This document shows positions 8,611 to 63,847 of a DNA stretch of 64,000 nucleotides, piece after piece. The stretch lies in the NCBI GenBank assembly GCA_951406725.2, contig OX597814.1, forward strand, positions 4,836,001-4,900,000, read 5' to 3'. The DNA is from Octopus vulgaris. Taxonomy: Eukaryota. The notes under the pieces were generated by a model that did not search any database, was not told the origin of the DNA, and worked only from the letters and a program-made list of their open reading frames with translations. The first letter of the stretch is position 1, and each line of letters begins with the position of its first letter. Position numbers and translations under genes: made by a program.

Positions 8611-11344
<2,734 letters not shown>

Positions 11345-12876: not shown

Positions 12877-13269
12877 ATGTGTATGACTATACGTCTGTCT
12901 CTATGCACGTATGTACGTACGTGTACTTGCATGTATGTATGTGTCTATCCATGCATACTTGTGTGCATGTCTTCATGAATACATGCATGTATGCATGTCT
13001 TCATGAATACATACTACATTACTACATATGTGTATATACATTACATACATGTATAAACTCATACATACGTATTTATGTATATATATATATATATATATAT
13101 ATCTATCTATATATATATAAAGTTAACCCAAACAAGAAAACAAAAAAACACAACAACGCAAGGACGTGGAACAAATAAAGTATTATTGGACGCTCAGGGA
13201 AAGAAGGAAAGAAGGAGGGTATATATGTAAGTATATATGTAATGTATGGATGTATGCATGCATGTATGT

Positions 13270-14502: not shown

Positions 14503-14521
14503 TATATTATATATATATATG

Positions 14522-14786
14522 TTTCTTTATTAGCCACACGGTGATGCACACAGACAGGACAGATTACAAAGTAGAGCTTTTCTTTTGGGGGAGAGAAAAA
14601 AAGTGGGGGTATCATAAAAGGGAACGAAAGAAAAAGGAAAGAAAAAAGAAAAAATAGAAGAAAAAAGGAAAGAAAAGAAACGATCGATAGGGATCGTGTA
14701 TCACAGAAATGTCATGATGTAAAGTGTAAAGGGGGAAAAAGATAAGGTTTATCCGTGGAAAGAAAAGCCTACGGAAAAGACCATGT
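14522..14786 (-). mobile_element. 3' UTR-like fragment of a LINE (same family as 60100-60215 and 63487-63760)
   Basis: Reverse complement contains gatacacgatccctatcgatcg...gaaaagctctactttgtaa...gtgtggctaataaagaaa, matching 63487-63760. Confidence 0.6.
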
Positions 14787-21890: not shown

Positions 21891-22030
21891 GGAATGAAAG
21901 TGTGAAAAGTATTCTACATTGGAACTGGGCTCTGACCGCGATCTGCTAATCAAGAATTCCAACATTAAATAATATTAAACAGTATTGATAACAACACAGA
22001 TTCCAGGATATTTCTTTAGACCGTACCAAA

Positions 22031-22714
22031 ATGCCAAACCCTGCATTGATAGCTCATCGTCGTGGAAGTCTACAACTGTCGTGCCCTGAGAGCGATGCTG
22101 CCGATTATCGAGTGGTGGTCATGGGAGCGGCTCGTGTTGGCAAAACGTGTATCGTTTCACAGTTTCTTCATGACAGATATCTTACTGATTACCATGAAAC
22201 AGTGGAAGAACTTCACAGAGGAGAATTTGTCATGGATGGAACTCGGATTATCCTCGACATTCTTGATACATCCGGTGCTTACCAATTTCCTGCAATGCGT
22301 AAATTAGCGATCTCTACCAGTGATGCTTTTGTGTTGGTGTTCTCTGTAGACTGTGAGAAATCTTTCGAAGAAATGAAAGCGATGCGTGACCAGATCTTGG
22401 AAGAGCGAGAAACGTGTGATTTGCCGATTGTTATTGTGGGGAATAAATCTGACGTAGAAGTGAAGACTCGAATAATTGAGAAGGAAACTGCTGAAGCTTT
22501 GGTTGCTGTGGAATGGGGACATGGTTATGTAGAAACTTCTGCCAAAGAAAAAGTGAATATTGAAGATATATTTAAAGAATTGGTTTATCAAGCGAAAGTT
22601 CAGCAATTTCGACGGATGCCTGCATTCCGTCGAGGGCGAAAATCGATGCCGGAAATATCAATAATGACAACTCATACGAAAAGGAAGAAACGCAATAGTT
22701 GCAATATTTCTTGA
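22031..22714 (+). CDS. Ras-family small GTPase, Rhes/RASD (Dexras)/DIRAS-like, 227 aa, single coding exon
   Basis: Intact ORF with G1 GAARVGKT, switch I YHETVEE, G3 ILDILDTSGAYQFPAMRKLAIS (Rhes/DIRAS-type FPAM motif), G4 VGNKSD, G5 ETSAK, polybasic KRKKR and CAAX box CNIS. Exact orthology cannot be resolved by eye. Confidence 0.93.
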   Translation: MPNPALIAHRRGSLQLSCPESDAADYRVVVMGAARVGKTCIVSQFLHDRYLTDYHETVEELHRGEFVMDGTRIILDILDTSGAYQFPAMRKLAISTSDAFVLVFSVDCEKSFEEMKAMRDQILEERETCDLPIVIVGNKSDVEVKTRIIEKETAEALVAVEWGHGYVETSAKEKVNIEDIFKELVYQAKVQQFRRMPAFRRGRKSMPEISIMTTHTKRKKRNSCNIS

Positions 22715-25699: not shown

Positions 25700-25870
25700 T
25701 TGTTATATTTTCTCTCGCTGTTTATTTCTGTGTTCCTTTCTGTCGAAGAGCGAAGGCTCGAAATGTAAAAGACTCTCTCACTTCTCGAGCATTAAACTAA
25801 TACATCTGTTTGTTGTTTACACATTCGTCTTCGTCTTTTGTCGGGGTTTTTTTTTTGTAATTTCTCACTG
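25698..25870 (+). mobile_element. Short hammerhead-bearing repeat (family H, subfamily 2)
   Basis: CUUU-CUGUCGA-A-GAGC-gaag-GCUC-GAAAUGUA-AAAG at 25736-25771; homologous to 28330-28550 and 61081-61300; flanked by microsatellite. Confidence 0.65.
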
Positions 25871-28329: not shown

Positions 28330-28550
28330 TGTGACCTCTCTGTCCGGCATTCGCCATGATAGATCGCTAGCCACTAAACCTTTTTCTATGTTCTCTCCCT
28401 GTTTATTTCTGTGTTCCTTTCTGCCGAAAAGCGTAGGGTCAAAACGTAAAAGACTTTCTCACTTCCTGAGAGTTAAACTAATACATTTGTTTGTTGTGTT
28501 GTTTATACGCCCGTCTTCGTCTTTTGTTTTTTTTTTTGTAAATTCTCACT
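28330..28550 (+). mobile_element. Family H repeat with a degenerate hammerhead
   Basis: cttt-ctgccga-aaagcgtagggtc-aaaacgta-aaag at 28417-28452; homologous to 25698-25870. Confidence 0.6.
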
Positions 28551-42298: not shown

Positions 42299-42698
42299 TC
42301 TTTTACTTGTTTCAGTCATCTGACTGCGGTCATGCTGGAGCACCGCCTTTAGTCGAGTAAATCGACCCCGGGACTTATTCTTTGTAAGCCCAGTACTTAT
42401 TCTATCGGTCTCTTTTGCCGAACCGCTAAGTGGCGGGGACGTAAACACACCAGCATCGGTTGTCAAGCAATGCTAGGGGGACAAACACAGGCACACAAAC
42501 ATATACACTCACACTTATATATATACACATATATACGACAGGCTTCTTTCAGTTTCCGTCTACCAAATCCACTCACAAGGCATTGGTCGGCCCGGGGCTA
42601 TAGCAGAAGACACTTGCCCAAGATGCCACGCAGCGGGACTGAACCCGGAACCATGTGGTTGGTTAGCAAGCTACTTATCACACAGCCACTCCTGCGCC
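42297..42698 (-). mobile_element. SINE family A, head-to-head with the LINE
   Basis: Full-length reverse-complement copy in (TA)n. Confidence 0.88.
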
Positions 42699-42707
42699 TA
42701 TATATAT

Positions 42708-45674
42708 ATGGCACTCACATATGCATGGCACTCACAGAAACGCATCTTGAACCCGATATAGGTGATGCAGAAATACACATGCCGCAATATGCAGTCATAC
42801 GCACAGATAGAAAAGGGAGGAGCCATGGTGGAGTTGCAATGTACATCCGAGATGACCTTACGCCACAGGTCCTGCTGTCATATTCAAACTCAGTGTGTGA
42901 AACTCAAATTGTACACATAAGACAATTGAATATCGTCATATGCACTACATATCGCCCACCAGATGCCCCAAATCACTCAGGCATGTTTGAAGACTGCCTA
43001 ACAAAAATAGGAGAAGTCCTCACCAACCTTGAACAGCACAACAGTGTATTCTTCATGGGTGACTTTAACCTCCCCAATGTGGAATGGCCTGGGGGGCAGA
43101 TGCTCCCAGGGATGACACACCATCAGCAGGCACAGCTGGAGTCCCTGCTCCATCTCACAAATGCCTCTTTCATGGAGCAAATAGTTCTGCAACCAACAAG
43201 GGCAGATAATATACTGGATCTCTGCTTCACAAACAATATGGATATTATCCATAATGTTAATGTGATGCCGACAATGATCTCGGATCACAACATAATAGAG
43301 CTGTCTATGTATGGAACAAAAGCCCCCGCAGACACACAGCCTATACGAAGCACCCACCATCTCTCCAACTTAAACTTTCATAAAGCCAACTGGAAGTTGA
43401 TTGAGAAAGAGATCCTCAAACAGGATTGGCCTGAATGTCTCTCCACACCGGACATAAACATGAAGCACAAACACTTCATGTCCATAATACAAGCCATATG
43501 TGACAAATATGTCCCAATGTGCAGGGCCAGCACACACAAGAACAAAAACAGGATCCCTAGAGAAAGGAGGATTCTTATGAGACGACGGACAAGGATTGCA
43601 AACCGCCTGAGCAAGCACACCAAAAGTGGTGAGAAGTCTCGGCTCGAAAGAATGCTAATGGAAACTGAGAAAAGTCTACATCAGTCCCATGAAAAGGAGA
43701 GAGCAGATAAAGAAGCTTGGGTAATAGAAAATATAAAATCAAACCCTAAAGCTTTCTTTAAGTTTGCCAAAGAGACAGCCACAGTGCACCAGAGAATAGG
43801 ACCTCTCTTCCAAAAAGATGGCTCTCTCACAGGAAATCCCACGAGGATAAGTGAAATACTGAACGAACAGTTTCAAAGTGTGTTCACTATACCTCTAGGA
43901 CACAGGCAAGTAAACAACCCAGAAGAATTCTTTGCCACTTTACCTGCGGCCAAAGAGACAAAAATTAAGTACATCAACATCGAAGATGATGATATCACAC
44001 TAGCCATTGATGAGATTGACACAAACTCAGCTGCTGGACCTGATGGATTCCCAGCGATCCTTCTCAAATCGTGCAAACGAGCCCTTGCAAAACCGCTACA
44101 GCTTCTTTTTCAGAGCTTTCTTGCAAGTGGTAAGCTCCCAGTCAAATTGAAAGAGGGGGTAATATGCCCTATCCATAAGGGAGGTAGCAGAGCAGATGCT
44201 AAAAATTATAGGCCTATCTCTCTGACCTCACACATCAGCAAAGTCATGGAACGAATAGTCCGTAAGAAACTAATCATGTTCCTTGAAGAAAATGACTTGC
44301 TGTCTGACCCCAGCATGGATTTCAACCAGGTAGAAGCTGCCTAACACAGCTCCTGCAACACTATGACTGGGTGTTGAAACAGCTACTAAATGGCTCAAAT
44401 GTGGATGTAATATATCTCGACTTTGCAAAAGCCTTTGATAAAGTCGACCATGGTATGATCTGTCACAAACTGCGTGGTCTCGGCATAGGCGGGAAACTTG
44501 GAGAGTGGCTGCACAACTTCCTAAAAGACAGAAGACAGGCAGCCGTGAGCAATGGAGCCACCTCCAAGGAAACGCAAATAACAAGCGGTGTCCCACAGGG
44601 CACTGTCTTGGGGCCACTGATGTTCATAGTGGCCCTTTCAGACATGCCTTCAGTTGCTACGATGACCACCCTTGCTAGCTATGCAGATGACACAAAAGTC
44701 TCCCACGCAATACAAAACCCTGAAAATATTGCGCATCTGCAACATGAGCTGGACACAATATACAGGTGGGCTGAGGACAACAACATGCAGTTTAATGCAG
44801 GTAAGTTCCAGGCCCTGCGCTATTGACACACAAAGGTAAATGACGTGAAGACTGGATACACTGGCCCAGGAAGAATTGCAATCCCTGAGTCAAAATCAGT
44901 GCGTGACCTGGGCATTGACATGAGCAATGATGCATCTTTCCAAATGCATATTGCTAATCTGGTGATAAAATGCAGACGGCTAGCTGGATGGATTCTCCGA
45001 ACTTTCAGAACAAGAGAGAAGGAGACACTGATGGTCCTATGGAAAACATTCGTCCTCAGCCGCTTGGACTACTGCTCCCAACTTTGGTCACCACACAATA
45101 TAAAACAAACAGCAGAACTCGAAGCAATTCAGAGAAGCTACACAAAGAAAATCGTCTCAATGCAAAATATCAGCTACTGGGAAAGACTGAAGGTATTAAA
45201 CCTCTTCTCCCTAGAGCGGAGGCGGGAGAGATATGCAGTGATATACATCTGGAAAATCCTGGAGGGTCTTGTCCCAAACTTTGGCATTCAAAGTTACTCC
45301 AACCGCAGAACGGGGCGCCGCTGCGTGGTGCCAAGGATTCCAACATCACCATCAAAATACAGGTCCAGATACTGCAACAGCTTGGGTTTCAGAGGACCAC
45401 AGCTCTTTAACATCCTCCCTAAATGCCTGAGAGACTTACATGGTGTGGATGTGGGTTTCTTTAAAACTAAACTGGATCTCTTCTTGTTGGGAGTCCCAGA
45501 TGAACCTACCTCACGACAGGAGACGCGGATGCGGGCAGCAGCATCGAACTCCCTTGTTGATCAAGTGCCACGTATCAGAGGTGGATTCACAAACTAGTGT
45601 AGCTCATTCAGCGGTGGTGCCCCAGCATGGCCGCGGCCTTCCGGGCTAAAACATTTTTAAGGATTTAAGGATTT
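42708..45674 (+). mobile_element. Young 5'-truncated CR1-group LINE ORF2 (APE endonuclease and RT) with one frameshift (~44310) and one stop (44824-44826)
   Basis: ALTETHL..RTDRKGRSHGGVAMY..YRPP..MGDFNLP..PTRADNILDL..SDHNII (APE); NYRPISLTS, QHGF, YLDFAKAFDKVDH, SGVPQGTVLGP, YADDTK (RT); LERRRERYAVIYIWKIL; stop at 45597; 3' UTR ending (ttaaggat) repeats into (TA)n. Confidence 0.93.
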
Positions 45675-47757: not shown

Positions 47758-47943
47758 ATATTGCTATATATATAGAGTTTGATATATATATATATATATA
47801 AATATAAGCAAGGTAAAAGTTTTTAGTTTTCATCCCCTTCAAAATTGCTCTTAAATGTGGTTTTGGCCATTTTGACTGCTTCTTCTAGCGTGTAAGGCTG
47901 CCTGTTAAAGGTCGCCTCTCTTGTGCTTGAATGTACACTAACT

Positions 47944-47973
<30 letters not shown>

Positions 47974-47974
<1 letters not shown>

Positions 47975-48385
47975 AGTGGCTGTGTGGTAAGTAGCTTGTT
48001 TACCAACCACATGGTTCCGGGTTCAGTCCCAGTGCATGGCACCTTGGGCAAGTGTCTTCTACTATAGCCTCGGGCCGACCAAAGCTTTGTGAGTGGATTT
48101 GGTAGACGGAAACTGAAAGAAGCCCGTCGTATATATGTATATATATATATATGGGTGTGTGTGATTGTGTGTCTGTGTTTGTCCCCCTAGCATTGCTTGA
48201 CAACCGATGCTGGTGTGTTTATGTCCCCGTTACTTAGCGGTTCGGCAAAAGAGACCGATAGAATAAGTACTGGGCTTACAAAAGAATAAGTCCCGGGGTC
48301 GATTTGCTCGATTAAAGGCGGTGCTCCAGCATGGCCGCAGTCAAATGGCTGAAACAACTAAAAGAGTAAAAGAGAGTAAAGAGTA
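47974..48385 (+). mobile_element. SINE family A
   Basis: Full-length match to 5910-6324. Confidence 0.88.
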
Positions 48386-48850: not shown

Positions 48851-49140
48851 AGTTAATCCCCCCCCCCAAAAAAAAAAAGAAAACGAAGAAAAAACACAAG
48901 AAAAAAAGCAACAACGCGAGGACATGTAAAGTATTAGAAGACGCTCAGGGAAGGAAAGAAAGGTGGTTTTATGTTTCGAGCAGACGCTCTTCGTCAGAAA
49001 CAGGAGACGGAAGAAAGTCCAAGAGAAAAGGAAAGCGGAGGGAAAAAAATCGCCAACGATCCACGCGTGGTTACATTTTGAAATGACCGGAAGGAAAAGG
49101 CTGAAGAAAAAGTTTTTTCTAAGACAGGGGAATGTAAGAG
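48851..49140 (-). mobile_element. Family H repeat with a minimal hammerhead
   Basis: GUUU-CUGACGA-A-GAGC-gucu-GCUC-GAAACAUA-AAAC at 49001-48966. Confidence 0.7.
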
Positions 49141-53369: not shown

Positions 53370-53578
53370 CTAATCCAAACATGAAAACACAAAGACAAAA
53401 CACAACAACGCGAGGACGTGAAACAAGTATAGTGTTATTGGACGCTCAGGAAAGGAAAGAAAGAAGGAGGAGTTAACGTTTCGAGCGGAGCTCTTCGTCA
53501 GAAACATAGAAAAAGGAAAGATCCAAGGAAGAGAAGACGGAGGAAAAAAATCGCCAACGATACACACGCGGTCACATA
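53370..53578 (-). mobile_element. Family H repeat with a minimal hammerhead
   Basis: GUUU-CUGACGA-A-GAGC-ucc-GCUC-GAAACGUUAAC at 53505-53472; homologous to 61565-61770. Confidence 0.7.
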
Positions 53579-53750
53579 CATATATATATACCATTTACCA
53601 TATTTTTATTTTTCATTCCCTTCGAAATTTTATCCTTTATTGTGGTTTGGAATTTAACTGTCCTCTCTAGCGTGCAAGAAGTCCTATGATGGATGCCCCA
53701 AACCCATGGTAGTGGAAATTTCAAATATTTCTGATTACCCTTTGATATTA

Positions 53751-53816
<66 letters not shown>

Positions 53817-54035
53817 TCTATGTATATATTCATATGTATATGAATATATATGCGCGTGTGTGTGTGTGAATTAAGGCTACCATTGGTTTCATGTTACGAA
53901 AAGTAGGAAAATATTCAAGTGTCTTAACAATTTTTCAAGCCAATCACATGGAGAAAGGTAGCCTTAATTCACAAATAAAGAAATTATATGCACCAGTGCG
54001 GTGTTGAGCATTCATTTTCGCTGTTCGACATTTAC

Positions 54036-54091
<56 letters not shown>

Positions 54092-54096
<5 letters not shown>

Positions 54097-56280
54097 TAGA
54101 CAAGGGAAATGCAGTTGTAATAATGGATACATCATACTATGGAAATCTTGTAATTTCCTTGCTTGATGACGACCTACATTATGAAAAAATTACCAACTAC
54201 ACCCCACAAAAAATAATGAAAACTCTATCTTCACTAATTAAAACCCATGAAAAGGAACTAACAACCAAAGAGATTGACTTTCTAACAAACTTTAAATGCA
54301 AACCTAGCCTTTTCTATGGTCTGCCAAAAATTCATAAAAGCCAAATTATAAATGAAACCATTAAAAAATCACCAAAGACATACATACACACACCTAACCC
54401 GGGGGACCTAAAACTACGACCCATTGTAGCTGGCCCAACCTGTGAAACACACAGACTAAGTCTATTTATGGACATCCTCCTGAAACCCTTCCTTAAACAT
54501 ATCGATAGCCATATCAGAGATGACTTAGATATGTTAAACCACCTTCCAAAAAAAGCCAAGGAAGAAACAATCCTAGTTTCATTTGATGTAGTTAACTTAT
54601 ATACCAGTATACCTCATAATTATGGACTAGAGGCAATACAGTTCTGGCTGGACCAATTTCCGGAAGAAATACCAAAAAGGATCAGTAAAGAATTCATTAC
54701 TAAATCAATTGAATTCATCCTACATAATAACCACTTCATGTTTGACAATACATTTTACCGTCAAAAATCCGGAATTGCTATGGGTACAAGGGCAGCACCA
54801 GTCATTGCGAACCTAACAATGGGCTACATGGAAATAATCATTTACCAGGAATCTTTATCAATCTTTGGAAACCTCCTTTCTCAATACATAAAAGAGAATT
54901 GGAAACGATTCTTAGACGATTGTTTTATACTCTGGAATGAAAACACAGATAAACTCCTAAAATTTAAAAACCTATTGAACAGCATAAACCCAAATATACA
55001 GTTCACAATGGAATACAACAAAATAGGAGCTCCCGTTCTTGGATATACTAATTAAAAAAATTAACCTTAAAATAGAAACAGACATTTTTTACAAAGCCAC
55101 AGACGCCAAACAATACCTTCTTTTTAATTCATGCCACCCAAGACACACTAAAACAAACATCCCCTTCAACCTTGCAAGAAGGATATGCACAATAGTGTCA
55201 GAACAAAATACCAGGAACTTTAGACTGCAAGAACTCAAAAACACCCTAATTGACAGACATTACCCAGCTCAACACATAGAGGATGGGATCAGACGTGCAA
55301 CAGAAATCAACATAGAAACTTTAAGAAAAGTTCAACACAACAACACACCTTCCCCGAAAATACTACCTTACATATCTACATACAACCCCAGAAACAAAGA
55401 AGCCTTCACCATCATCACCCAGAATTTACCAATACTTCATAAGGACCCCAAATTAAAGGAAATTCTAAACATACACCAAATCATTAAAAGCTACAAACAA
55501 CCTAAATCACTTAAAAAGATTCTCACAAAGGCAAAATTGTTTTCTGAAATTACGGATGCAAAAGTAAAAAAATGTGGTAGATCGAACTGTGCAACATGTC
55601 CAAACCTGCTAGAAGGATCAGAATTCCTCTTTAAAGAGGGACAGAAATTCAAGATCAAATCTAACTTTACTTGTGCCTCTGAAAACATAATTTATGTCAT
55701 AAAATGCTCGGGCTGCCACCAAGACTACGTGGGATCCACGGGACTATCACTCAGACGTAGATGCACACTGCATCGACAACAGATTGCATTCCCAGAATAC
55801 AGAATGATACCTTTTAGTGAGCACATTGAGAAATGCGCAAAGCAACTACTACCACAATTTTTAATCTTTCCATTTTACCAATGTGCTATCGGATCATCAA
55901 CACAAATTAGACTAAACAAGGAAACATTCTTCATTGAAAAGTACAAGCCCAGACTTAACCATGCCAACATACTGATACAGAGAAATTCACACCAAGGGAA
56001 AGGAAAAATTTTAAGCGATTATCTCCCTTACACCGGAAGAAATCACTCATTACCTCCCCTTATTTAGAACTCTTTTAAACATAAACATAACGATAACTCT
56101 ATTCAACATAAACATAACGTCGTAAGAAATTTGAAAAGCTAAACGCTAAACCGGTCTTTCTTCTAAACTATGTCATTGTAAGGAAAAAAAAATTTTAATA
56201 TTCTTCAGACATATTGACGCAAATATATATATTTTTTAACCTTTAAGCCTTCTGTAGTTTTTTCACTTTTTACTATTTTC
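54092..56280 (+). mobile_element. 5'-truncated Penelope-like retroelement (RT and GIY-YIG), Neptune-type, with one frameshift at ~55020
   Basis: DKGNAVVIMD, FYGLPKIHK, LRPIV, LVSFDVVNLYTSIP, GIAMGT, RFLDDCF, FTME/LPFLD, YLLFNSCHP, linker CGRSNCATC, CASENIIYVIKC..C..DYVGST..LRRRCTLH; stop at 56067; starts directly after (TA)n. Confidence 0.92.
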
Positions 56281-57316: not shown

Positions 57317-57604
57317 GTACATGCGTAGATATACAATGCTTGTATACATTTATGAATATTTATGTAGATAGAGAAAGAGAGGGGGTAGAGATTTCTTTAT
57401 TTAGCCACACAGGGCTTAACACAGAGGGGACAATACAAGGAAGAATTTTCCTTTTTCGAAATTTATCAAAAGGGATCGGAAAAAAAAGACGTTTTGTGGG
57501 GACGTGTACGGAAATAGATAACAAGGTAACGTTTCTTTAAACAATTTGAATTCCCAAAAGGGGAAGAAAATGGTAACCTCATAAAAGGGAAACATCTGAG
57601 CCTG

Positions 57605-59804: not shown

Positions 59805-60099
59805 ATGTATGTATGTATGTATGTATGTATGTACGTACGTACGTACGCATATTCATTCATAGAGACGTTTCCACCTGCGCATTTACAAACATAATTATCT
59901 GGATCTAAAAGATTGGTTGACTAAATATTTACGTAGGAAAACTCCCTTGCGTGTGTGTTCATGCTCAGTGTGTCGATAGAAATGGACCTGCACGTGCATG
60001 CACGCAAGCATCTATCTATTTATCTATTTATCTGTCTGTCTGTCTGTCTACCTACCTACCTACCTACCTATCGATCTATCTATCTGTCTATCTATCTAC

Positions 60100-60215
60100 C
60101 TTTTTTTTATTCTTTTGTTTTTTGTTTTTTGTTGTTTTTTTCATCCCCCAAAAGAAAAGCTCTACCTTGTAACTTGTCCCATCTGTGTGCAGCCCTGTGT
60201 GGCCAATAAAGAAAC
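60100..60215 (+). mobile_element. LINE 3' end fragment in (TATC)n
   Basis: catcccccaaaagaaaagctctaccttgtaacttgtcccatctgtgtgcagccctgtgtggccaataaagaaac is identical to the end of 63487-63760. Confidence 0.65.
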
Positions 60216-60266
<51 letters not shown>

Positions 60267-61080: not shown

Positions 61081-61300
61081 AACGGGAAGGCTTACGAAAA
61101 TAAACAAAAGACGAAGGCAGGTGGAGTAAAAACAAACGAATGCATTTAGTATGGCGCTCAGGAATAGAAATAGAACAAGTCTTTTACGTTTCGAGCCTAC
61201 GCTCTTCAACAGAAAGATACACAGAAAAGAAACAAGGAGAGAAACAAGGAAAGAAAAAAATGCGTGTAGGAGCTAACGATCTATCATGGCGTTTTGACTT
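61081..61300 (-). mobile_element. Family H repeat (subfamily 2) with a minimal hammerhead
   Basis: UCUUU-CUGUUGA-A-GAGC-guag-GCUC-GAAACGUA-AAAGA at 61217-61180. Confidence 0.7.
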
Positions 61301-61565: not shown

Positions 61566-61766
61566 GACCGCGTGTGTATCGTTAGCGATTTTCTTTCTCC
61601 GTCTTCCCTTCCTTGGGCCTTTCTTTTCCCTATGTTTCTGACGAAGAGCTCCGCTCGAAACGTTAAGTCCTCCTTCTTTCTTTCCTTTCCTGAGCGTCCA
61701 ATAACACTATACTTATTCCACGCCCTAGCGTTGTTGTGTTTTCTCTTTGTGTTTTCATGTTTGGAG

Positions 61767-61770
<4 letters not shown>
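61565..61770 (+). mobile_element. Family H repeat with a minimal hammerhead
   Basis: gtttCTGACGAaGAGCtccGCTCGAAACGTtaag at about 61634-61667; (TA)n on both sides. Confidence 0.7.
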
Positions 61771-61808
<38 letters not shown>

Positions 61809-62104
61809 TAAATTAGAGATAAAACCACTATTAGGCAAATCAAACATACACACACATATATATATATATATATTTGTATATATATATTTAAAATTTATAA
61901 GTTTAAATCATTTAGATATTTTTTTTAATTTTTAACTTTTATATTTTTAAATTAATTTTATGTATTGGCTTGTGTTTTTCACTGTTTGATTTGCCTAATA
62001 GTGGTTTTATCTCTAATTTAATATAATATAATATATTTATACTATAAAATTGGATTTAATCCTAAATCTAATTTTTTCCTGTAAGTTTGGATTTATTCCC
62101 TTAT

Positions 62105-62172
<68 letters not shown>

Positions 62173-62592
62173 TACATATGTGTGTGCATCAGTATATATC
62201 AAATATTCATAGGAATAGTTGATATATATATATACCTATACATATACATATTTCTATATATACATATATATACATATACATATTTGTCTGTCTATATATA
62301 TAGAGAGAGAGAGAGAGAAATAGAAATAGAGAGAAAAAGAGAGATACATATCTGTACACACACATATGTATATATGTATGTATAGGCGTGTGTGGTGTGT
62401 GTGTGTGTGTTTGTATGTCTGTATGTATACGTTCGTGCATATTCATGTGCCCAGTGTTTGATCGATCCTTCGATATTGCTGTCTCGCCGTGAGTATTATA
62501 ATTCTGGTATCGATGACGTGCAACAGATGAAGATGACGGAACGACTTTCCGGTAGGGATTCCACCATTATAACCCTATCAATCATTGCTTCA

Positions 62593-62653
<61 letters not shown>

Positions 62654-62877
62654 TCAATATAGGGTGGCAAAAGAAAAATTTTTGTAGAATTCTTTCGCCA
62701 CCAGCGGCCTAGTAGGAAAAAATTAAATAGTCATAAACTATTTTTACGTTCAACATCACAATCAAGGAACGGCCATAATAGGCCATTCACCCACTAGAAA
62801 TAACAGCCAAAAGCTTTAACCGCAAAATAACATTAATTCTGTAAACCAGGAGAAAATTGAAAAACTTTTACCCTGTA

Positions 62878-62984
62878 ATTTCTTAGACGATGCACCGTTT
62901 CATCTACCGTTTAATGGTAAACTAACCTGATTAAATTAAATCAAGCCAATCCACCATAGGCCCTTAGACTCATCAGTAAGAAAT
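62878..62984 (-). ncRNA. Type I hammerhead ribozyme, copy 1
   Basis: Exact reverse complement of 63164-63270. Confidence 0.85.
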
Positions 62985-63163
62985 AGCCAAGTCGGAACAG
63001 ATATTTTTCACGAGGCATTCCTCTTGCTACCTCGGCAATATCTGACCTAAAATTTTCAAATCGTCGCACTCGCGCCAAATTTATCGGCAGCAAATAAATA
63101 TAAGCCACCGATTCCATTACGGAACTAACCAGAAAATTCATAATTAATCAATATAGGGTGGCT

Positions 63164-63270
63164 ATTTCTTACTGATGAGTCTAAGGGCCTATGGTGGATT
63201 GGCTTGATTTAATTTAATCAGGTTAGTTTACCATTAAACGGTAGATGAAACGGTGCATCGTCTAAGAAAT
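63164..63270 (+). ncRNA. Type I hammerhead ribozyme, copy 2; predicted cleavage after GUC at 63262
   Basis: Stem I AUUUCUUA/UAAGAAAU (8 bp), core CUGAUGA, stem II GUCUA/UAGAU with a 19-bp hairpin extension, GAAA, and near-palindromic stem III ACGGUGCAUCGU ending in the GUC triplet. Confidence 0.85.
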
Positions 63271-63388
63271 TACAGGGTAAAAGTTTTTCAATTTTCTCCT
63301 GGTTTACAGAATTAATGTTATTTTGCGGTTAAAGCTTTTGGCTGTTATTTCTAGTGGGTGAATGGCCTATTATGGCCGTTCCTTGATT

Positions 63389-63451
<63 letters not shown>

Positions 63452-63452
63452 G

Positions 63453-63484
<32 letters not shown>

Positions 63485-63486
63485 TA

Positions 63487-63760
63487 TCTGTGATACACGA
63501 TCCCTATTGATCGTTTTTTTCCTCTTACCCTCTTTTTTCCTCTTTTTTCTTCTTTTTTCCTTTTTTTTTCTTTTTTCCTTTTCCTTTTTTTTGTTCTTTT
63601 TTTCCTTTTACGATCCCTTTTGATCGAAAACCTACGCCACCTTTTTTTTGTTTCTTTTGTTTTTTTTGTTTTTTGTTTTTTTTTTTCATCCCCCAAAAGA
63701 AAAGCTCTACCTTGTAACTTGTCCCATCTGTGTGCAGCCCTGTGTGGCCAATAAAGAAAC
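63487..63760 (+). mobile_element. LINE 3' UTR-like fragment ending in aataaagaaac followed by (TC/TATC)n
   Basis: Homologous to 14522-14786 and 60100-60215. Confidence 0.6.
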
Positions 63761-63847
63761 TTCTCTCTCTCTCTCTCTCTATCTATCTATTTATCTATCT
63801 ATCTATCTCTATCTCTCTATCTATCTATCTATTTATCTATCTATCTA

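Follow-up and report, generated by a model that had tools for sequence, protein, structure and literature searches.

A non-coding unit with a predicted long-armed hammerhead ribozyme and Penelope-like insertion anatomy in a microsatellite of Octopus vulgaris

An insertion in a (TA)n microsatellite of Octopus vulgaris is probably a non-autonomous, retrozyme-like unit that was mobilised by the machinery of Penelope-like elements (PLEs). It lies in a 64,000-nt stretch of genomic DNA (assembly GCA_951406725.2, contig OX597814.1, positions 4,836,001–4,900,000 of the forward strand), referred to below as the window, which holds one solitary copy of 1.04 units together with an inverted part. The features of the insertion are listed in Table 1.

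Table 1. Features of the insertion and its flanks, in window coordinates
Feature	Positions	Strand	Basis
Left target microsatellite, (TC)8 then (TA)n	62594–62650		Sequence; last AT common to element
3′ copy of the 20-nt terminal repeat	62649–62668	−	Sequence repeat; putative start of cDNA 1
494-nt monomer, 36.6% GC, non-coding	62669–63162	−	Fold and frame analysis
13-bp hairpin across the junction of head-to-tail units, immediately upstream of the 3′ end	62663–62702	−	Mean pair probability 0.98
Predicted type I hammerhead	62878–62984	−	Motif, fold, family variants
19-bp hairpin with 6 G·U pairs, extending stem II	62914–62957	−	Pair probability 0.98
20-nt terminal repeat, 5′ copy (final 20 nt of the next upstream unit)	63143–63162	−	Repeat and family joint
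4-nt overlap, head-to-head meeting of the two 5′ ends	63159–63162		Sequence
Inverted 235-nt copy of 62989–62755, with second hammerhead	63159–63393	+	Sequence comparison
Right target microsatellite (TA)n	63392–63487		First AT common to arm

The main part of the insertion starts and ends with the same 20 nt, spaced by 494 nt. The first-pass annotation of this DNA had reported the same redundancy but counted 18–19 nt, because the outer AT of the 20-mer is common to the (TA)n run. Within 62650–63162 the longest exact direct repeat is 19 nt, against at most 15 nt in 2,000 base shuffles. The annotation had further described an identical inverted copy of 235 bp joined through tggc, and indeed the two arms are 100% complementary and TGGC is common to the 20-mer and the inverted arm. 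In the ribozyme sense both outer ends of the insertion are 3′ ends and the two 5′ ends join head to head, and at its 3′ end the inverted arm is 105 nt less extended than the main part. The terminal redundancy and the ribozyme cut site lie in different places. (TA)n flanks the insertion on both sides, 2 nt (AT) are common to the run and each outer end, and any target-site duplication would be hidden within (TA)n. The sequence beyond the right-hand (TA)n is not a mirror image of the left flank. It begins with a T-rich repeat family (63489–63780, with copies at 60098–60233, 14521–14705 and 57370–57455) whose members are 81–93% alike and end in (TC)n or (TATC)n. The unit was correctly described as non-coding: when looped, its longest stop-free stretch is 68 codons on the minus strand and 44 on the plus strand.

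Partial tandem, inverted truncated 5′ copy and microsatellite target together match the anatomy of PLE insertions given in PMC8557442, which reports partial tandems, inverted truncated 5′ copies and, for Neptune and Naiad, a bias toward (TA)n. The earlier remark that inverted partial repeats are typical of PLE insertions agrees with that account.

On its minus strand the unit carries a predicted type I hammerhead, in which the core elements CUGANGA, GAAA and NUH are all present together with stems I–III. The core consists of CUGAUGA (62976–62970), GAAA (62901–62898) and a GUC ending at 62886, and cleavage is predicted after C62886. Stem I has 8 bp (62984–62977/62885–62878) and stem II 5 bp (62969–62965/62906–62902), while stem III (62898–62887) is self-complementary. 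CUGAUGA and GAAA are 68 nt apart, a distance taken up by the 5-bp stem II, an internal loop and the 19-bp hairpin. The 10.1–11.1 pair is G·U or A-U instead of the usual G-C. The inverted copy has a second hammerhead (core 63172–63178, predicted cut after 63262). The annotation's claim of one hammerhead per unit, repeated in the inverted copy, thus stands as a prediction, with an atypical stem II of 68 nt. Rfam gave no match at the gathering score across the window, and the 21 matches obtained in 62500–63500 at E ≤ 10, the best of which fall on AT runs, include no ribozyme; Rfam is blind to this hammerhead because stem II spans 68 nt. A hammerhead descriptor, written after the motif was seen, matched the window at these two copies alone and gave no hits in 30 locally shuffled windows.

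Stem III and its loop are self-complementary, and two copies pair over 12 bp. A self-complementary stem III is the trait described as letting animal hammerheads cut as dimers (PMC4209133; PMC6765202; PMC3088659). The fold of lowest energy has CUGAUGA wrongly paired to the cut site, and a fold with an open core costs ∼4–6 kcal/mol more. This modelled cost would fit slow or assisted cutting and is no proof of any cutting. Folded as a circle, the minus-strand monomer reaches −142 kcal/mol (z −5.7, 40 dinucleotide shuffles) and the plus strand −87.7 kcal/mol (z −3.4). With 65% of its nucleotides paired and its low GC content, the unit fits the description of retrozymes as non-coding, highly self-paired and below 50% GC. 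The fold is branched, and the hammerhead core occurs on only one strand of the monomer. A tRNA-derived promoter was rejected, as ARAGORN found no genes in the window and no convincing A or B boxes were seen by eye.

The searched stretch or parts of it are present in 20 of the 24 public sequencing runs listed, representing four organisms and one small-share metagenome from 10 studies. Run X20 (share 0.06) was excluded from the evidence. We aligned contigs of four runs: X1 and X6, which we guess to be DNA (organisms A and C), and X2 and X7, which we guess to be RNA. X1, which is possibly the source sample, was read to ∼80%. Matching contigs numbered 4,221 in X1, 11,159 in X6, 112 in X2 and 151 in X7 and covered all 29 bins in each run, although such counts, like summed depth, give no copy number. 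Identities in X1 are widely spread, with 1,547 contigs at 99% or above and 1,325 under 95%. From the contig numbers and the full bin cover we therefore conclude that the family is very abundant and diverse; its unit length is 490–494 nt. Every bin is also reached in X2 and X7, by contigs of runs whose RNA label is a guess and with no silent control.

A head-to-tail joint, 63157–63162→62674, was detected in both DNA runs. For 63162→62674, X1 has five contigs with 40 letters on the short side and five further rows, and X6 has four rows. This joint places the unit head to tail in DNA and indicates that, on that side, the break in the window copy does not mark a fixed end. Tandem copies had been anticipated in the first-pass annotation, and what was found is a unit that behaves as closed and repeating. 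The joint depths, in the hundreds, are small relative to total depths of 1e5–1e6. No head-to-tail joint is among the rows listed for X2 or X7, and the contigs are too short to span two consecutive units that each have a full hammerhead.

Contigs that continue into unlike sequence make up a share of 0 in X1 and X6, 0.01 in X7 and 0.18 in X2. Most of the listed loose ends in the DNA runs read as variants of the unit, and among the junctions and loose ends listed, outside which lie 158 loose-end rows, none leads into an ORF. The annotation had set its proposal against an ordinary pseudo-LTR, in which every copy is the fixed terminus of a coding PLE; the listed rows do not have this appearance. 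One X2 loose end, in (TA)n at 63095, marks a 5′-truncated copy. Two X2 contigs continue for 190 and 255 unlike letters, one of them being a diverged relative. The other, with 255 unlike letters, is aligned up to 62872, and a diverged relative, a chimera and a helper element are all candidates for what follows. Contigs with the same alleles as the window copy and zero differences are found in X2 (records 9 and 11) and X7 (record 32).

The variants in these runs bear on whether the unit acts as RNA. The analysis covers 40 of 72 rows, and the variants, being alleles of related copies, do not count as independent events. None falls on the 11 fixed core positions in the 40 rows shown, where ∼0.9 would be expected, an observation that is weak alone. 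Both free core positions vary, namely N7 (62972) and the cut-site base 62886, where the change from GUC to GUA is the majority form in all four runs. Pair-keeping changes are present in stems I and II: a stem II base pair varies from G·U to A-U, and 62965/62906 from A-U to G-C. In loop III a double change from UGCA to UAUA retains the palindrome, and in the diverged X2 contig the letters of stem III are changed yet paired. Among the confident pairs of the minus strand, 9 of 13 variants keep the pair (4.7 expected); for the plus strand the figure is 5 of 13 (5.2 expected). The accompanying p value of 0.0005 is too low, as the window copy itself supplied the fold and pair-breaking alleles drop out; a strand-symmetric count gives 11 against 3 (p 0.03). 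One common variant, at 62953 and with about half of the depth, disrupts a pair in the long hairpin. Judged from these alleles, the ribozyme looks conserved as RNA.

Older relatives of the unit are likely present in the window. Two pieces in (TA)n, 47802–47946 (+, z 13) and 53597–53752 (+, z 5.5), are similar to the 140 nt that follow the cut site on its 3′ side, as well as to each other (z 11, 75% over 80 nt), and they likely represent an older branch of the family. The piece at 47802–47946 begins within a few bases of the position of the cut site and ends near the 3′ end of the inverted arm. This is a hint that cut RNA may sometimes serve as template and that 62740–62755 may be a recurring start site. 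Weaker similarities picked from 498 tiles (2260–2390, minus, z ∼6; 53900–53970, minus, z 5; 43900–43980, minus, z 4) are not counted as copies.

The window also contains a broken PLE at 54090–56067 (+), with a reverse transcriptase (RVT_1, E 2e-8), a frameshift near 55030, a CxxxxCxxC cysteine linker and a GIY-YIG-like end. It appears Neptune-like, a clade assignment made by motif only. Comparison of the unit with the PLE ORF of the window, the PLE 3′ flank (z 2.6 at best) and the minimal-hammerhead repeats described below gave nothing significant, and no reverse transcriptase and GIY-YIG frame is joined to a unit in the window or among the listed loose ends.

The window is otherwise rich in microsatellites and retroelement remains. 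A second repeat family has a minimal hammerhead core with a short stem II and no stem III (61566–61768, +; 53371–53573, −; 48891–49071, −; 13117–13218, −). Its members are 74–92% alike and lie in microsatellites; they are typical PLE terminal pieces, unrelated to the 494-nt unit. A third, PLE-terminus-like family (61097–61290, 28352–28534 and 25709–25841) includes, near 61190–61210 on the minus strand, a hammerhead-like motif that has decayed. A small element at 61797–62035 consists of inverted arms of ∼50 nt around (TA)n and an AT-rich core. A LINE at 42353–45597 (+), which we take to be CR1/L2-like, encodes endonuclease and reverse transcriptase in three frameshifted pieces, and 9115–10224 (−) is a 369-codon C-terminal fragment of another non-LTR retrotransposon, presumably RTE-like. 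SINE-like repeats occur at 47970–48130, which we assume to resemble an octopus SINE, and at 48215–48360. An intronless frame for a Ras-family GTPase (Rap or Rhes-like) lies at 21992–22714 (+); the best named relatives of the Ras-like protein (22034–22711) come from gastropods and bivalves, at 49–58% identity, which points to a mollusc host distant from those groups.

We propose the following origin for the insertion. Head-to-tail copies would be transcribed into multimers, which the ribozyme would cut into monomers, either slowly or in pairs through the self-complementary stem III, and the monomers may be ligated into circles. The reverse transcriptase and endonuclease of a PLE would be borrowed to nick (TA)n and copy the RNA. 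In the present case priming likely took place on both target strands, each end matching in 2 nt (AT): a first cDNA of 513 nt would start at 62650, just past the 13-bp hairpin, and another of 235 nt would start at 62755 from the other strand. Their 3′ ends would then have annealed through TGGC/GCCA. If both were copied from a single multimeric RNA, the template would need 834 nt (1.7 units, with 86 nt skipped) and two uncut sites. A skipped stretch on one template recalls the twin priming of LINE-1. Alternatively, a circle may have been copied past its start and followed by fold-back on the new DNA, which would give an identical product. With circle and fold-back, the arms would be identical for a simpler reason; a young uniform array likewise accounts for their identity, given the contigs identical to the window copy. 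Both arms cross the cut site, and the template was therefore continuous there, as either an uncut multimer or a re-ligated circle. Between these two we put the linear uncut multimer somewhat ahead. The experimental record of PLEs fits parts of this scheme: a purified PLE protein nicks or cleaves and extends both strands, favouring AT-rich DNA, and it begins at two places within the RNA, taking mostly uncut RNA (PMC11167929).

The first-pass annotation had read the insertion as a reverse transcript of a circular or multimeric RNA placed by PLE machinery, with a template switch as the cause of the inversion. The PLE-type anatomy and the closed unit support the former, with an uncut linear multimer fitting as well as a circle. 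For the inversion, priming on both target strands is at least as good an explanation as the template switch.

We consider it unlikely that the unit instead comes from a coding PLE, as the terminal repeat region of an end with tandem 490-nt blocks, and that the insertion is a 5′-truncated scrap of that PLE. The hammerheads in PLE terminal repeats are type I and have a palindromic helix III (PMC4209133), animal retrozymes are described as close kin of pLTRs (bioRxiv 10.64898/2026.07.22.740005), and the relatives at 47802–47946 and 53597–53752 sit in (TA)n as truncated ends would. Moreover, 55 contigs in X1 and 238 in X6 overrun the ends of the stretch, with the letters beyond falling outside the listed rows. 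However, the head-to-tail joint continues for 40 letters and all bins are covered, none of the listed loose ends enters a reading frame, and no share of the X1 or X6 contigs runs on into unlike sequence.

Another question is whether the element is real but its inverted arm an artefact of assembly or library, or a later fold-back of DNA in the microsatellite. The full identity of the arms and the absence of a strand-change joint among the listed rows of X1, X2, X6 and X7 would fit such an origin, as would the poor assembly of microsatellite-rich DNA. Yet the arm ends cleanly in (TA)n with no mirror of the left flank behind it, and both arms hold the same minority alleles, which polishing with mismapped reads would be expected to pull to the majority. 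Inverted 5′ copies are also a described PLE trait (PMC8557442), and we regard an artefact or a later fold-back as improbable. We regard it as very improbable that recombination spread the family as a DNA satellite whose hammerhead is dead or incidental. The window copy stands alone in (TA)n, measures 1.04 units and has ends of the PLE type, and the variants respect the core and the minus-strand pairing. On the other side, head-to-tail joins do exist as DNA, and transcription is a presumed step of the cycle. A viroid-like RNA replicon was rejected because the unit is abundant in the DNA runs; its branched fold and the core on one monomer strand only also count against it. In viral contigs the gapped core pattern had 14 matches, all lacking stems or further similarity, and the 19-mer had none. 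Elsewhere the matches to the 19-mer (0 and 2 in metagenomes, 1 in genomes) are attributed to chance, as none of the three extends beyond 20 nt.

Mobilisation of animal retrozymes by PLEs has so far been proposed from co-occurrence and sequence kinship, not from insertion products, in the available text of PMC7229834 and bioRxiv 10.64898/2026.07.22.740005. Given the PLE signature on a non-coding unit, the many insertion ends of the family could test this link and tell circular from linear-multimer templates. Since Rfam overlooks the hammerhead with the 68-nt stem II, ribozymes in animal repeats may be undercounted. A bolder reading, which we offer tentatively and think more doubtful than not, is that the family consists of very high-copy, still active circular-RNA retrozymes with an overlooked long-armed hammerhead, whose insertions record PLE priming on both strands. 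If so, they would be direct anatomical evidence that PLEs move animal retrozymes; long-armed hammerheads would be invisible to Rfam and to short-stem descriptors, and some may be hidden in elements considered free of ribozymes, Naiads with ‘half cores’ among them.

Like animal non-LTR retrozymes (PMC7229834; bioRxiv 10.64898/2026.07.22.740005), the unit is non-coding, low in GC and structured, measures a few hundred nt and has a single predicted type I hammerhead; head-to-tail joins, high abundance and a PLE in the same genome are further common features. Its length of 490–494 nt exceeds the 170–400 nt given by Cervera and de la Pena (2020, PMC7229834) and lies inside the 51–972 bp range of Li et al. 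(2026, bioRxiv 10.64898/2026.07.22.740005). It differs in the 68-nt span of stem II, and cleavage and circles are here predicted only; in the latter study 8 of 9 predicted Xenopus retrozymes failed to cleave in vitro. The PLE-type partial tandem and inversion in (TA)n of the window copy also set it apart, no such description being found for retrozymes in the accessible parts of PMC7229834 and bioRxiv 10.64898/2026.07.22.740005. We found no published description of this mollusc's long-armed ribozyme family in the article text that the search covered, and the family is possibly catalogued under another label in Repbase, Dfam or another repeat library; the literature search likewise gave nothing on hammerheads with a long stem II. 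The cephalopod Naiads are called long inactive (PMC8557442), and 31 recently active PLE families are reported from one octopus genome in a paper whose available text does not mention ribozymes (PMC13282606).

With the pseudo-LTRs of PLEs, whose hammerheads are minimal or have a palindromic helix III, the unit has in common the type I topology, the palindromic helix III, the partial tandem and the inverted truncated 5′ copy (PMC4209133; PMC8557442), together with two different 3′ ends and the (TA)n target of Neptune and Naiad (PMC8557442). Unlike them it has no ORF, and its 3′ ends are 105 nt apart, compared with 30–40 nt in PLEs. PLE hammerheads are described with a helix II of 7–8 bp, a short loop and G10.1-C11.1, from which those of the unit differ (PMC4209133; PMC8557442). 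Non-autonomous Chlamys PLEs (MRC1) are likewise non-coding, with pLTRs and head-to-tail insertions, but they are green algal, and canonical hammerheads are reported in only two Chlamys subclades (PMC8557442). The ‘HHR_half_core’ motifs of Naiad resemble the unit in their (TA)n target and in core halves that are far apart, by 35–50 nt (PMC8557442), whereas the unit has all three stems and the cut triplet at 68 nt. Animal retrozymes and their proposed link to PLEs are already published (PMC7229834; bioRxiv 10.64898/2026.07.22.740005). Taken together, these comparisons suggest that the unit works like an animal non-LTR retrozyme or a non-autonomous PLE.
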